From Octopus sinensis (lineage: Eukaryota), in assembly GCF_006345805.1 (NCBI RefSeq), contig NC_043003.1, forward strand, positions 10,292,001-10,356,000: a stretch of 64,000 bases of DNA, read 5' to 3'. The notes beneath the pieces are model-generated. The model did not search any database and had not been told where the DNA came from. It saw nothing but the letters and a program-made list of their open reading frames with translations. Below, in pieces: positions 23,757 to 55,474 of this stretch (position 1 is its first letter; each line of letters opens with the position of its first letter). Both the position numbers and the translations under genes were made by a program.

Positions 23757-24297
23757 AATGCCCTGATGCAGTACCAGGCAGTGGTTCTCATGGTTTCTGA
23801 TCTTAACTGGTTGGAAGTGTTACCACGTACGTTGTTTTGTCTTGGTATAAAAGATGGGCTACAGCAAATATTCTGCTCAATACTTCAAATTTACTTGTTA
23901 GTTGACCATGTTCCTTAGTGGCTGACGATATGTGAATCTTTGATCACAGGCAGAAGTAGTGGGGGATCATCATAGCCATGTGTTGAGAGAAATTCTTTGG
24001 TGATTGAATAATTCACCTCTGGAAACATGGGTGTTTCATTCAACATCCTTAAACAAACCTTATTAAAGGACATTTTGAGCGGGTTGGGTCACTCGACCTG
24101 AAGAAAATTCTAACTGGGCTCCACCTGCAAGATAATGCGCGGTTTATCTTGGTATAAGATCACAATGTCGCGCACATATAGTTGTGATGCATGGGCCTGG
24201 TGTACCCTTATCAGACGGGTTGTCATGATGTGTATATTGGGCTTCGTGTAATTTTAACCCGGTGTCACTTTGATGGCATACGCTGCTCTCTCATTCA
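23757..24297 (+). mobile_element. About 540-bp non-coding element ending in an (AAT)n tail
   Basis: More GC-rich island with no ORF, bounded by the R4 tail and a long (AAT)n run. Only one copy is in the window, so its repeat status is inferred. Confidence 0.5.
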
Positions 24298-34669: not shown

Positions 34670-35021
34670 GATAAGAAAGTTTGTTTGGTAAAGCACGTGG
34701 GTGAATATATAAGAAAATAGTAAAGTGTGAAAAAACGACAGAAGGCTTAAATGTTAAAAAATATATATATTTGTGTCAAAATGTCTGGAGAATATTGGAA
34801 AAATTTTTTTCCTTTCCTTAAAATGACATAATTTTAAAATTTTAAAGAAATTACCGGTTTCGCGTGTAGCTTTTCAAATTTCTTGTGACGTTATGTTTAT
34901 ATTGCATGGAATTATCGTTGTTTTTATTTCCAGGAGATTTCTAAATAAGGGGAGGTAGTGAGTGATTTTTTCGGTGTAGGGGAGAGATCGCTTTTTAAAA
35001 ATTTTTTTTCCCATTTCCTTG

Positions 35022-35387: not shown

Positions 35388-35524
35388 AATGGGAAATGGG
35401 AAAAAAATTTTTTAAGCGATTATCTCCCCTACACCGGAAAAAATCACTCACTACCTCCCCTTATTTAGAAATCTCCTGGAAATAAAAACAACGATAATTC
35501 CATGCAATATAAACATAACGTCAC

Positions 35525-35564
35525 AAGAAATTTGAAAAGCTACACGCGAAACCGGTAATTTCTT
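35525..35564 (+). ncRNA. Minimal hammerhead motif with U3:A8 covariation (mirror copy 34845-34884 on -)
   Basis: AAGAAAU-UUGAAAA-GC-UACAC-GC-GAAA-CCGG-UA-AUUUCUU: 7-bp stem I, palindromic ACCGGU, GUA triplet. Confidence 0.7.
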
Positions 35565-35695
35565 TAAAAATTTTAAAATTATGTCATTTTAAGGAAAGGA
35601 AAAAAATTTTTCCAATATTCTCCAGACATTTTGACACAAATATATATATTTTTTAACATTAAGCCTTCTGTCGTTTTTTCACACTTTACTATTTT

Positions 35696-42189: not shown

Positions 42190-43298
42190 TTATTATTTTA
42201 TTTATTTTTATCTTATGTTAGCTAGTTTCAGCTCACGAGCTGTGGCCATGCTGGGGCACCGCCATTTGGTGTTGCTACATGATTTTACTTCACGAATGCG
42301 TTTTAGCAATTGCCATTTGGTGCATGAGAGAGTTCGATGCAGCTGCCCTCATCTGCACCTCCTGCCCTGAAGTTGGTTCATCTGGGACACCTGACAGGAA
42401 GAGATCCAGTTTTATTTTAAAGACATCTGCATTCACCCCATGCAGGTCTCTCAGGTTCTTCGGGAGGATATTGAAGAGCTCTGGGCCTCTGAAGCCCAGG
42501 CTATCACAGTATCTTGTCCTACACCTTGATGGCAAATTTGGTGTCCTTGGCACTATGCAGTGGCGCCCAGTTCTAGCATTTGTGTAACTCTCGATGCCAT
42601 AATTTGGGACAATTCCTTCATGGATCTTCCAGATGTATATTATGGCATATCTTTCTCGCCTACGCTCTAAGGAATAGAGTCTTAATCTCTTGAGTCTTTC
42701 TTCAGTAGCTAATATGCTGCACAGAGGCTATCTTCTTCGTGTAGCTTCGTTGGATCGCCTCAAGTTCTGTGATTAACTTGACACTGGATGGTGACCATAT
42801 CTGAGAGCAATAGTCAAAGTGGCTTAGGACAAGTGTCCTCCAGCAGACCATCATGGTTTCCTGGTCTCTTGTTCTAAAGATTCTAAGAATCCATCTAGTC
42901 AGCCGCCTACATTTCATTGCCAATTAAGCAACATGCACATGAAAGGTTGCATCATCACTCATGTAAATACCCAGGTCTCGCATTGATTGTGTCTCTGGGA
43001 TTGCGATCCCTCCGGGTCCAGTGTTATTTATTCGGTATGCATTTAGTTTTTGCATGCTGATAGCATTAAAGATTGAATGAAACTTTTCCATTGAACTGCA
43101 TGCTATTCTTTTCAGCCCACTTGTATATTTTGTCCAGTTCACATTGCAGGTGCTTAGTGTCTTCAGGTTCTGTATTGCCTGTGAAAATTTTGTATCATCT
43201 GAACTTGTGATCGTGGTTCTCTGCGTGGCTGAGGCATGTCTAGAAGGGCGATTATGAAGTAGTGGTCCCAAAACAGTGCCTTGCGGAACACCGCCCAC
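42190..43298 (-). mobile_element. CR1-group LINE, 5'-truncated (RT C-terminal half and 3' UTR)
   Basis: GVPQGTVLGPLL, DDTK, RDLGIYMS, HFDYCSQIWSP, LEAIQRSYTK, LYSLERRRERY and GPELFNILPKNLR across frameshifts. Confidence 0.92.
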
Positions 43299-44957
43299 TA
43301 TTTGTGTTAATATATATATATATATCTATATATATATATTATATATATAATATACATATATATATACACGCATACATATATACATACATGCATATATATA
43401 TATATAATATATATATATAATATACGCGAGAAAGAAGCAACAAGAATGGATAGGTTTTTAGTACGATCGTTTCATACAAGGACAGGTTTTATTAAAAGTT
43501 GCAAAGATTACAGCATATAAACGAGTCCCGTACTATCAATCAGCTAAAATACATGTAAGTTCTCTAGACATCCTAGTGTTTGAGGCTATACTCATGAAGT
43601 AATGTAGATAATTAAACAGATTTCTAAAGTTCATTAAAGTTCCTTAAAGATGATGTATAGTCTTATCACAGAATTTTAAAAAAGTTTTGATAGCATCACA
43701 GAGAAGGTGACCTAATCCATATGAATTTCCATAGATATGATGAGGGATTATATACTCACAGAAGACAAATTTATCCATTGTTATTAGCATTACAGAGAGG
43801 GTGAATTAATCCTTTGTATATATGCACAGATTCCAATGGTGTAAATGTAAATTTCCAGAGAAATGGAGATGAATTTCATATTCACAGGCGATAAATTTTA
43901 CAATGGCTGAACACAATGAGGTAGGTACCAATCCTTGTTATATGATTAGGTGTTTGCCATATTAATCACACTACTGCTATTCACAAGAGGCTGTAGCTAT
44001 TTAACTCTTAAAGGTTGAAGGGCTTACTAGATCGGCCAAGAATAGAGAAGGGAATAGAAGAAAAGAGAGGAAAATAATGGAGGAGGGAGCAAAAAAAAGG
44101 GGGGGGGGAAAGGGGGACTAAAAGAGAAGAGAAAAGGAAACAGAGAATAAGAAGAAGAAAAAGAAGAAAGAAAGAAAAGAAATAGGGAAAGAAGGGAAAA
44201 AAGAAAAAGAAAAAAGAGGGTTCTAGTTATACAGAAGAGCTAGTAGACTGTAAGTCTGGTTTTAATCAACAGGATCTAGGAACTGGAGGGGGAATATTAT
44301 TCTTTGACCAGTAAACCGTTAATTTATTGCTGTTGAAATCAGCTATGAGTTTAAAGAGAATCTAAAGAGAACACAGTCAGGGGTTAAGGGGTCAGATGCT
44401 AAAATCACCAGAAATACATTAGGAAAATCTAAGTATAATCTTATCAAAAAGTCATTAAAAATTTACTTATTTAATTTATTCATTTTATTGTCTTAAGGAG
44501 TTGTCGTTATTATTCATACATGACCGACTACAGGTCAAATCTTATAAGATCATTTACAAGGTGTTAGGGGATTGTCTATCCTAATGAAGATAATCATATA
44601 TCACCGAGGGAATAGCCTTATTTATTTAATTATGAAATAGAATTATGGGGCTTACAGTAACTAATTATAATTTATTAGAGTTATGCTATTTAAATTAGAT
44701 TAAGTTAGGAATTAAAATTAAATATTACAATTAAGATTTAAAATTAAGAATTTAAAATTGCGAGTTTGAAATTAAATAAAGCCTCAATTAAGTAGCGAAT
44801 AAGTACTATTCATTTCCTGTTCTCAAAAAACTGATGTAGATATAAGGAAAAGGATAAAGATAACTGTAATGTGAGAACTCTTAGTTATCTACTTAAAAGC
44901 AGTGCTATACTAGTAGAAATCAAGTTATATCTATCTATCTAGTTATGAATATTCCAA

Positions 44958-46600
44958 TCATTTAAAATATTTTAAAGTCTTCAATTTAGCGTGGACACAA
45001 AACTTGACCTAGTTCGATATGGTTATTCAATAAGTTTCTATGTTTACTATGCTTTAGAATTTCGTACGTCTCCATGGAGCATAGTTGACAACCAACCCTA
45101 CTATTTTTATACGGAATTGCTCTCCTAACTATTTCCCAATTAAGGTATAATTTTTGTTATTATTTTTGAGTTCCCAGATTTTGTTTGAAAGTGTGGTGGT
45201 ACCAGCTTTATGACGTAATTTAAAAGTCGAGATGTGATTTCTAACTCTGGCTAAAAAATTATTGTACAGCCAATTGTAAAAATATTGTTATTCTCCGTGG
45301 ATATGGTACATTTATAGATTACATTATTTTCCTACATAGACCAGGTGCGGGCATTTTGATTTTATTCTACACTTACACACAGGAGGAACAACTTCAGGCC
45401 TTGGATTATTCCTGGGTAGATGTTTAAGGTTCCTATTATTTTGATTATCATTTCTATAGTTGGTACTGATATCTAAAGTATTGCTATTATTTATTGATCC
45501 TTCCGTTTCATCATTTAGGTGTAAAGTCCTACCAAGATTTCTTATTATTCGTAATGTTATTATTATTGTTAGTCTTTTATCCAACTGTATATTATTGTTA
45601 TAGATATCACTGATATTTTCATTCTCCCTATTTTCACCATTAGCCTTATTTCTATTATTTCTATTATTAACAATATTACTTCTATAATATCGGCATTGTT
45701 ATTATTACTATTAATGTTAATGTTATTAGTCATTCTGTGGTTACTAATTTCACCTATGTTGATAGTTCATATTGCTGTTTTTTATTGTTGTTGGTAGTAT
45801 TATTGTTATGCTATTGGTATTCATTCTGATAATATTATTTTTATTTCTATCTTTCCTGGCTAGTTTAATGTTGTTATTTTAATTTTAGCTATTAAAGTGG
45901 ACATATTTGGGAGGGTTGAATAAGAAATCCTAACTGTTTTCCTAGAAATAATTCTATGATATCTATGAGAGATAGGGAAATTTTTTTCCAGAATTACTTT
46001 GAATTTGTTCTGTATATCCGATTGTATCGCACAGTTGAAAGGAATATTCAGCCATAATATATCTTTTTATAAAATTTAGGGTTCGTAGAATTACTACTAT
46101 TCATCTCACCGGAGAGTATTGTATTTATTACCATTATTTTTATTTTTATTTGTGTGCATCTTAGGTTTATCTACTTCAATCTTATCCGAGTTACCTATGT
46201 TCTGGTCAATGCTTCTATTTGAATTGTGGGCCTGTACTCTAGATTAGCGTTTACCGTTAATTTAATTCTACTTTTATTTCGGGTTTGGTCTTTTTTGCTG
46301 CTTATTGATTAATGATAACTTCATTATTAGGAATAGGAGTTCTCCCTATCAACGAATGTGATCTTTTGGTTGTATCCAGCCTTAGTTAACGCCGCATTAT
46401 AATGCTCAGAATGGGAGTTAAATATATCCTTATTGGATGATAATTTTGAAATTCTTAATGAAATATTTCTTACTAAAGATTCTATTATATTTGGGGGATG
46501 ATTTGATAATTTATTTACGTAATTCGTGACTTCGCCTTCCTTTCTAAATGGGTAATGTAGCTTGGAGTTAAGGTCTAGGGTAATATCTAGGAAATTAGCT
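44958..46600 (-). pseudogene. PLE ORF remnant: RT C-terminus/thumb, Asn-rich linkers, GIY-YIG endonuclease
   Basis: NFLDITLDL...SNHPPNII...; WLNIPFN...RISYSTLPNM; CKCRIKSKCP..GLC...NVIYKCTI...IGCT...NHISTF...TTLSNKIWELK...WEIV...CQLC...CVH, with several 1-bp frameshifts. Confidence 0.88.
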
Positions 46601-47146
46601 TTTTTTGCTCCCTCCTCCATTATTTTCTCTCTTTTCTTCTATTCCTTCTCTATTCTTGGCCGATCTAGTAAGCCCTTCAACCTTTAAGAGTTAAATAGCT
46701 ACAGCCTCTTGTGAATAGCAGTAGTGTGATTAATATGGCAAACACCTAATCATATAACAAGGATTGGTACCTACCTCATTGTGTTCAGCCATTGTAAATT
46801 TATCGCCTGGAATATGAAATTCATCTCCATTTCTCTGGAAATTTACATTTACACCATTGGAATCTGTGCATATATATACAGGAGGAAATTCACCCTCTCT
46901 GTAATGCTAATAACAATGGATAAATTTGTCTTCTGTGAGTATATAATCCCTCATCATATCTATGGAAATTCATATGGATTAGGTCACCTTCTCTGTGATG
47001 CTAGTCAAAACTTTTTTAAAATTCTGTGATAAGACTATACATCATCTTTAAGGAACTTTAATGAACTTAGTAAATCTGTGTTAATTATCTACATTACTTC
47101 ATGAGTATAGCCTCAAACACTAGGATGTCTAGAGAACTTACATGTA

Positions 47147-47237
47147 TTTTAGCTGATGAGTACGGGACTAGTTTATATGCTGTAATCTTTGCAACTTTTA
47201 ATAAAACCTGTCCTTGTATGAAACGATCGTACTAAAA
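47147..47237 (+). ncRNA. Type I hammerhead ribozyme motif with a long stem II (mirror copy 43456-43549 on -)
   Basis: UUUUAG-CUGAUGA-GUACGGGAC...GUCCUUGUAU-GAAA-C-GAUC-GUA-CUAAAA; predicted cut after A47231. Confidence 0.8.
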
Positions 47238-47381
47238 ACCTATCCATTCTTGTTGCTTCTTTCTCGCTTATAATCACCCCACATTACTGTATTGTTAAAT
47301 CAGTATAGTTCTTTTGGTGCATCTAAGTTAGGTACCATATTCAAGTAAATTTTTAAATTAACTTGAATCTTTATTGCTCTT

Positions 47382-47423
<42 letters not shown>

Positions 47424-48461
47424 ATATATTGAAAAAAAGTCGTCAGAATTTTGGGAAATATTTTTTTTATTATTATATCTTCATTTTCATTGTTTGTGTT
47501 TTGTTTTGTTTTTCTTTTTCAAAGTCTAACCCCCAAAAAAACAAAAAAAAACAACGTTCTCTTATAAAGAAAATCCGCCTGCTAAAAAAATCTGTTTTAT
47601 ATAAATAAGCAAGATATCTGTATATTCACAGAATTGTAGTTGACAAGTTCGAAAGACGAACGAAAGCGTTAATATGAAAATGAAGATATAACAATAAAAA
47701 AAGTTCTTTCACAAACCCTGAGGGCTTTTTTTCAATATTCAATTCCGTGCACCACACCTAACACTCTACACACACATACATATATATATTATATATAATA
47801 TAGGACAATCAGTATATTTATATATATATATTATATATATATATATATATATAGATATATATATATGTGTGTGTGTGGTGTGTGTGTGTGTGTGTGTGTA
47901 TACATACGTATGTTTGTATGCATACATACAGGGAGGGAGAGGAACAAACAGACAAACAGAGCGAAAGAAACCTACATACCATACATACATGCATACAAGT
48001 GTATCTATATAGACACATACGTATGTATATATATATGTATATGTATGTATGTATATGTATGTATGTATATATACATTCATGTGTATACAGACATACACAC
48101 ATACACACACACTCACGCACACATATATGTATATATATAGATATATATGAGCAATAATACCCAAATATTGCAGTCCACTTCACAGCTCTCTCTGTATTAA
48201 AAACCGACCTAAATGTCTGGGGAATCTCATACATAGGTATTTCTTCTGTGATTACAAAGAACTATTCGCAGCAACAACAACAACAACGACAACTCACCAA
48301 CCTAACAGAGCGACGTCGTTAAATATAAAATACACAGAAACAGATTTCCCGTTTGTATTTAATGTTTTTCATTTCAGTTCATCTGAAAAGGAAACCACAA
48401 TTCTCTACGTTCTTAACAGACGAGACAATCGCTGTTGTTGAATTTTCACACTTTTGCTATC

Positions 48462-55217: not shown

Positions 55218-55474
55218 TATCTGTAAATATATGTGACAATTATTCGGTAGCCATGATAAAACTCCGAGTTTCGGATTTCGGGACGGAAACATACGCCGCC
55301 ATCTCTTCAGTTATCCAGCCATCGAAAAAATGCTATGAAAATCTCATAGCATTTCATAGAATTTTTTCGAAGGCCGGATAACTGAAGAGAGGGCTGCGTG
55401 TGTTTCCGCCCCGACATCCGAAACTCGGAGTTTTATTATGGTTACCGATTAATTGCCGCATATATTCACAGATA
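55218..55474. mobile_element. Penelope-like foldback with a hammerhead-like motif in each arm
   Basis: Arms 55218-55342 and 55351-55474; GAUAA-CUGAAGA...GAAA-CUCGGAG-UU-UUAU(C/U) at 55255-55315 (-) and 55377-55437 (+); related fragment at 59928-59975. Confidence 0.75.

Follow-up and report, generated by a model that had tools for sequence, protein, structure and literature searches.

What element does the hammerhead motif at 47147–47237 of this 64,000-nt stretch of Octopus sinensis DNA (the window) belong to, and does its unusually long stem II promote cleavage? The preliminary description, made from the letters alone, placed a full hammerhead core here and suggested that the extension supplies tertiary contacts allowing a monomer to cleave. 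The forward strand does hold a complete type I layout of three stems, core, palindrome, and GUA, and every part named in that description lies where it was placed (table 1). The motif is very probably a genuine type I hammerhead shared by a whole family of Hydra-type Penelope-like elements (PLEs) in octopus.

Table 1. Features of the hammerhead motif and of the PLE insertion that carries it.
Positions	Strand	Feature	Remark
47147–47237	+	Type I hammerhead motif, intact core	Sequence and descriptor search
47147–47152	+	Stem I 5′ strand, 6 bp	Partner of 47232–47237
47153–47159	+	Core CUGAUGA (CTGATGA)	No variant listed at ≥10% in 4 runs
47160–47219	+	60-nt stem II region, exactly 60 nt before GAAA	Same length in family
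47160–47174	+	Segment able to pair alternatively with 47221–47232 (GAAA, palindrome, cleavage site) when 47170 is C	A in window copy weakens pairing
47220–47223	+	GAAA	
47223–47230	+	Palindrome ACGATCGT, stem III/loop 3	
47229–47231	+	GUA triplet	Predicted cut 47231/47232
47232–47237	+	Stem I 3′ strand	
46600–47272	+	Inverted 5′-truncated copy of the element's 3′ end	Joined to RT truncation point (~46600–46605, short T-rich overlap)
47273–47383	+	~110-nt 3′ tail, on this arm only	Family sequence; contigs reach 47380
47384–47430		(TA)n tract, right end of insertion	
43421–46605	−	Decayed 5′-truncated Hydra-type PLE, ~3.18 kb	
46330–46605	−	RT thumb remnant	87% identical to Octopus sinensis P0001
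45887–46066	−	Conserved block after thumb	35–36% to P0003, P0004
45351–45377	−	CxCX5C linker motif	Definition from PMC8557442
44986–45330	−	Frameshifted GIY-YIG-type endonuclease (EN) remnant with CxxC	21–30% to P0004 C-terminus, E 4e-7
43421–44097	−	Element 3′ end	660/680 columns identical to 46600–47272
43456–43549	−	Second hammerhead copy, 3 extra core bases	Private to this copy
43311–43424		(TA)n-rich tract, left end of insertion	

Around the core, stem I is 6 bp and open, the base of stem II is 7 contiguous bp, and stem III is either 2 bp with a tetraloop or an 8-bp helix in a dimer. Folding predicts a G10.1-U11.1 closing pair for stem II, followed by nine firm lower pairs with a bulged U, a 2 × 2 internal loop, and a weak upper helix with a hairpin. 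The firm portion is limited to these lower 9 bp; the upper part is largely open in the centroid and weak in a shuffle control (z −0.9 to −1.6). As a whole, the 60-nt region folds at −10.1 kcal/mol (z −1.38), a stability reached by 40 of 500 shuffles. A tight descriptor (stems I, II, and III of at least 6, 7, and 2 bp), tuned to the 47147–47237 match itself, had no matches in 100 Markov-randomized windows. A looser one (5/4/2) matched in 1 of 100 randomized windows and, in the real window, at 47147–47237 alone. Another candidate, at 23922, was dismissed for its 2-bp stem II. Rfam has no match in the window at gathering score, this hammerhead included, and none of the 28 matches at E ≤ 10 over 43000–48000 is a hammerhead. 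The miss is likely due to the long stem II insert, as Rfam models are not built for 60 nt.

The motif lies in a 673-bp inverted copy of the 3′ end of a decayed element encoded on the opposite strand. Searches with tblastn using P0004 matched the thumb, post-thumb block, and EN in that order. In a tree of relatives and three Octopus proteins, based on 84 columns and with many forks open, the thumb clusters with those three proteins (support 100/98); named Hydra RTs were compared by eye in the alignment of PMC8557442. Thumb identity to non-octopus relatives is 41–49%. The RT core, to which the RWK and DKT motifs (with no IFD) of Hydra elements would belong, is absent from the window's copy, cut off by 5′ truncation, and we place the truncation point at 46605 because contigs that depart from the window sequence there continue into RT matching P0001. 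Hydra ENs are marked by CxxC and CxH and have no CCHH; in this decayed copy, the EN retains CxxC, and the CxH position reads CPR before a stop. Pfam at cutoff found nothing in six window fragments and four relatives; the relative P0032 has a subthreshold GIY-YIG match (E 0.017) and the window fragments have not even that. A search with the EN fragment returned one candidate, and none was scored. Linkage of the EN to the 1.55-kb 3′ region is known from this single locus.

Insertion into (TA)n at both element ends is as in the Hydra clade. The truncated copy alone is 3.18 kb, above the <3 kb that is a tendency of Hydra elements rather than a strict criterion, because it has Asn-rich inserts and a long 3′ region. 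Other assignments were rejected. Naiad is ruled out by the C-terminal position of the EN, and a non-LTR retrozyme by the lack of tandem 150–400-bp repeats, the locus having two inverted copies only. Identity with Hydra-1_oBim is also ruled out: motif and thumb differ, and two motif strings of the element have no occurrences in the available supplement of PMC8557442.

Several features of the element and its relatives are recorded in their own right. Asn-rich low-complexity expansions follow the RT thumb (45380–46330, minus strand) in the octopus Hydra lineage, and the 3′ noncoding region (43421–44985, minus strand; ∼1.55 kb) is long for Hydra elements. A pyrimidine-rich tract occupies 44060–44230, and the inverted copy starts at its end. 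The Octopus proteins P0001, P0006, and P0007 are PLE fragments annotated as kinase-like or uncharacterized DDB-like. To the left of the insertion, decayed LINE-type RT sequence (42800–43310, minus strand) is, by eye, interrupted by the left (TA)n tract. Candidates for related loci numbered 105 in metagenome contigs, 117 in viral contigs, and 53 in genome contigs, of which 3, 0, and 0, respectively, were retained. No hammerhead was found 3′ of the ORF in two of these loci (L001 and L002); in the third, a metagenome contig, a hammerhead-like motif with short stems precedes a Hydra-type RT (L003:326–378, plus strand).

Elsewhere in the window, a second and unrelated type I hammerhead occurs at 55254–55315 on the minus strand, with a CTGAAGA core, 31-nt stem II region, near-palindromic stem III, and GUU site. 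Rfam at gathering score misses it as well. A diverged inverted copy lies ∼60 nt away (∼55375–55440, plus strand), between microsatellite tracts, and the pair looks like a very short PLE 3′-end inversion. A near-perfect inverted repeat (34720–34990 and 35420–35690; core of 141 nt, 99%) ends at a (TA)n tract and has a PLE-like inversion layout, with no Hydra protein match there.

An alignment of the two arms of the hammerhead-bearing insertion shows 6 substitutions and 12 gap columns. At 29 of the 35 sites that vary in the family, both carry the reference base, and they thus derive from one template; away from the core, departures from the family are mostly in the 46600–47272 arm. The many indels between arms suggest assembly noise in the fold-back region. 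The preliminary description had also reported extra bases in the core of the inverted copy at 43456–43549, and we confirm three. This insertion is either a mutation or an assembly error, and the broken core is private to that copy, as no core change is among the family variants listed at ≥10%.

Family variation was read over 46540–47380 (841 bases) from the contigs of four runs, out of 24 listed, that represent four organisms, with a 10% floor for variants and with alleles unphased. Run X1 contributed 3250 contigs and X7 596; the other two, X13 and X18, gave 2 and 1, and X18 may be RNA. Among the variants listed at ≥10%, no substitution or indel affects stem I or any of the 13 bases of the core, and none of the indels changes the length of stem II, in any of the four runs. 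An intact core and a 60-nt stem II are thus the family norm, which disposes of the concern that the family consensus might have the disrupted core. Neither full-length nor tandem copies of the family were seen among contigs of the four runs, and no head-to-tail joint was found among those placed on 46540–47380, where contigs can show presence but not absence.

Five sites vary within the motif, and none breaks a modeled pair. C at 47170 (A47170C) stands at ∼100%; the A is private to the 46600–47272 arm, the other arm having C. T47183C changes a U-G to a C-G pair, A47206G changes U-A to U-G, and C47187T is in the apical loop. C47228T, at a CpG site, changes G-C to G-U in the palindrome and accounts for 22% of summed contig depth in X1 and 71% in X7, depth not being equivalent to copy number. 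All three paired-site variants retain pairing, although three are too few to count (∼1 in 6 by chance, by our estimate). No two-sided compensatory changes occur among the contig variants of the four runs.

The same contigs describe the 3′ end of the family. In X1, 19 contigs end at 47272 in (TA)n and others run through the next 110 nt, giving two 3′ ends with the tail between them. Summed depth in X1 increases approximately fourfold over the last 180 nt (47091–47272), as expected if many copies hold little beyond the hammerhead. Relative to an X18 contig, the 46600–47272 arm has 26 differences in 46641–46892 and none in 46893–47068, and contigs break at 46911 and 47081 into other sequence. On sequence evidence, this pattern and the breaks represent subfamily mosaics with a common 3′ end.

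Stem II had been called atypically long for a PLE hammerhead, and published elements bear this out. Counted from the table in file S2 of PMC8557442 (Craig et al. 2021), the span between core halves is 12–26 nt (median 14) in all 25 Hydra families given there; the octopus region has 2.3 times their maximum length. It is not the first long stem II in a PLE: PLE-X1_sMoe has ∼54 nt (counted by eye), and the example at 55254–55315 has 31 nt. The spike moss elements PLE-X1_sMoe and PLE-X1_sTam, flagged as noncanonical in the same file, resemble the octopus motif in this respect but are EN-less plant elements of another clade, with the motif near the 5′ end and a long unpaired loop; cleavage is only predicted there, as it is here.

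Other likenesses to the Hydra elements of PMC8557442 are a type I motif near the 3′ end, a palindromic stem III, and cleavage after A, which is common among them; a G-U closing pair of stem II, also present in Penelope-13_HM and -17_HM; the CxCX5C linker, C-terminal EN, and (TA)n target; and an inverted 5′-truncated copy, as in Penelope-13_HM, with one-sided tails also described. The octopus element differs in that its truncated copy exceeds their full length (<3 kb), its tail is ∼110 nt rather than 30–40, and it has the Asn-rich expansions and 1.55-kb 3′ region.

Comparisons with hammerheads of other elements bear on mechanism. Minimal PLE hammerheads share with the octopus motif a short palindromic helix III suited to dimers (PMC4209133; PMC6765202; PMC7761336) and a helix II longer than canonical, with no clear loop–loop contact in the available part of Cervera and de la Peña (2014; PMC4209133). 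However, their helix II is 6–8 bp with a short loop versus ∼22 bp predicted over 60 nt in octopus, and the octopus motif lacks their extra base between A9 and 10.1. The hammerhead of PAc, an anole Poseidon element, is likewise followed by two alternative 3′ ends with a tail between them, and two RT start sites flank this tail in PAc (PMC11167929). The first octopus 3′ end is also followed by AC-rich sequence (47273–47287). PAc belongs to another clade, and its ORF begins in stem II, whereas in the octopus motif the reading frames that start at two ATGs last just 2 and 5 codons. The canonical type I hammerheads of animal non-LTR retrozymes share the 6-bp helix I and the 2-bp helix III with tetraloop (PMC7229834), but the octopus motif has neither their 4-bp helix II with a terminal loop nor their tandem repeat, and it is part of an RT-coding element.

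We favor, with a probability of roughly 55%, the reading that this is the 3′-terminal type I hammerhead of an octopus-lineage Hydra-type PLE, which would be slow or silent alone, would cut at 47231/47232 as a dimer or with protein, and has a 60-nt stem II that is tolerated rather than activating. To judge from sequence, the RT thumb, CxCX5C linker, EN remnant on the minus strand, and (TA)n at both ends are all Hydra traits (PMC8557442), which argues for this reading. In PLE hammerheads, a short palindromic stem III goes with cleavage as dimers and with low rates (PMC4209133; PMC6765202; PMC7761336), and the hammerhead of PAc requires protein for cleavage and is dispensable for insertion in vitro (PMC11167929).

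Predicted energies fit the PLE dimer model for the window copy, less so for the family. Self-pairing of the palindrome between two copies is −10.0 kcal/mol, and an active double hammerhead of the window copy is −33.4 versus −28.2 for two monomers. With majority alleles, the active dimer (−32.8 and −28.6) is predicted barely to beat two monomers (−32.0 and −28.0) and to lose to an inactive dimer (−40.7 and −36.7), which argues against cleavage as a dimer. C47228T weakens the palindrome duplex from −10.0 to −5.8 kcal/mol and leaves monomer stem III unaffected, yet it is the majority allele in X7; this is unlike strong selection for dimers, though the site is a CpG. A lone hammerhead fold (−9.3) compares with a minimum free energy of −14.1 kcal/mol, a share of ∼1e-4 that cannot tell monomer-active from monomer-inactive motifs because the nearest-neighbor model had no positive control and ignores tertiary contacts.

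Under the favored dimer- or protein-assisted reading, the lone RNA is predicted to be slow or silent, and cleavage would await either the pairing of two motifs by way of their stem III palindromes or refolding of the motif by a protein of the element itself. In tandem full-length elements, a read-through transcript would have two motifs that could pair as a double hammerhead, trimming the RNA at a point ∼41 nt short of the main 3′ end. Reverse transcription initiating at two sites downstream of the motif, as in anole PAc, may account for both 3′ ends (47272 and ∼47383). The family-wide stem II extension would be tolerated and is likely no activator. The present locus may have arisen in one insertion event with inversion at the RT truncation point. 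Because its arms point apart, no transcript of this locus would have two sense motifs, and one across the whole unit would, from the layout, lock the motif in a 670-bp duplex. The window copy is most likely an inert relic.

A monomer made efficient by docking of its long stem II on stem I or the flanks, a reading in line with the preliminary description, is unlikely on the models. The 6-bp stem I and a stem II bulge after 4–5 bp correspond to the canonical 6/4 register (PMC4209133), the extension is at full length in four of four runs, and the common C47228T weakens the dimer only. A 2-bp stem III with a tetraloop also works as a monomer given tertiary contacts, for example in invertebrate retrozymes; cleavage of monomers is 22% in axolotl Amex2 and efficient in coral retrozymes (PMC7229834). 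However, one added stem II pair lowered activity in a pseudoknot hammerhead (PMC3088659), and viral type I hammerheads with a longer helix II are read as free of loop–loop contacts in the available text of PMC13725137. The 4-bp helix II capped by a helix-I-contacting loop that marks canonical tertiary-stabilized type I hammerheads is absent here: helix II continues past the bulge, with no terminal loop 2 close to the core. The canonical loop–loop contact of hammerheads has U at position 1.7, and the octopus motif has A. The upper stem is weak, and the longest extension-to-tail pseudoknot pairings, of 5 bp, are at the level of chance (matched by 1193 and 1136 of 2000 shuffles). With no terminal loop 4 bp from the core, tail pairings at chance, and a predicted competing fold over the core, the proposed tertiary contacts are unsupported, a verdict that comes from secondary-structure models blind to such contacts.

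The competing fold raises the alternative that the extension is a selected, built-in lock whose 5′ strand covers GAAA, palindrome, and cleavage site until a protein or partner RNA opens it, which we consider doubtful. With the family's C at 47170, pairing of 47160–47174 with 47221–47232 is predicted at −10.7 kcal/mol, matched by 8–10 of 2000 shuffles of the middle part of the extension and 79–128 of 2000 of the whole; C47228T retains it as G-U. In the 91-nt motif with majority alleles at 37 °C, its share is about that of the stem II fold (0.37–0.38 vs. 0.40–0.42). However, these majority alleles were combined with phase unspecified, significance is lower for the X7 majority alleles (59 and 117 of 2000 shuffles as good), and with 47170C alone (X13, X18, and the other arm) the share drops to 8% at 37 °C and 1% at 15 °C, and to ∼0 in the window copy. 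No compensatory change was seen among variants of the four runs, and the likeness between the two segments may be a by-product of an old fold-back duplication. We therefore treat the masking fold as a post hoc lead of modest significance that is possibly inhibitory. A related and similarly doubtful proposal, also drawn from these models, is a two-state switch in which the 5′ strand of stem II would alternate between completing the ribozyme and masking its core, with RT or a partner RNA deciding whether the RNA is cut.

Least probable is that the motif is irrelevant as a ribozyme and kept as an RT-bound structured 3′-end landmark or by hitchhiking in a young family: PAc inserts normally with dead hammerheads and, in the available part of that study, its cut site is not the end of any RNA-seq read (PMC11167929), variation is low across all of 47091–47272, beyond the motif, and inclusion of flanks brings many competing folds (stem II share 0.01–0.15), but the 13 core bases, NUH triplet, and three stems are all intact, a state that would be difficult to maintain without selection since the split from other Hydra families (thumb identity 41–49%).

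Judged by sequence, then, the octopus hammerhead is a modest structural variant of the well-known association of PLEs with hammerheads. In the literature, we found neither an account of the octopus family nor a metazoan PLE described with a 60-nt stem II, although a prior listing, for example in Repbase or Dfam, is possible. PLE hammerheads are slow, dispensable in vitro, and perhaps protein-dependent. With its many copies and its stem II fixed at 60 nt, the family is a natural subject for a deletion test that asks if the arm is activating, inhibitory, or without effect, and natural alleles at 47170 and 47228 separate the masking, dimer, and monomer models. The locus also exposes a blind spot in searches: Rfam missed the 47147–47237 motif, and the core-only search by Craig et al. 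used a 7–17-nt spacer (PMC8557442), shorter than 60 nt. PLE families now called hammerhead-less may hold long-armed motifs, because such motifs escape both Rfam and short-spacer searches.
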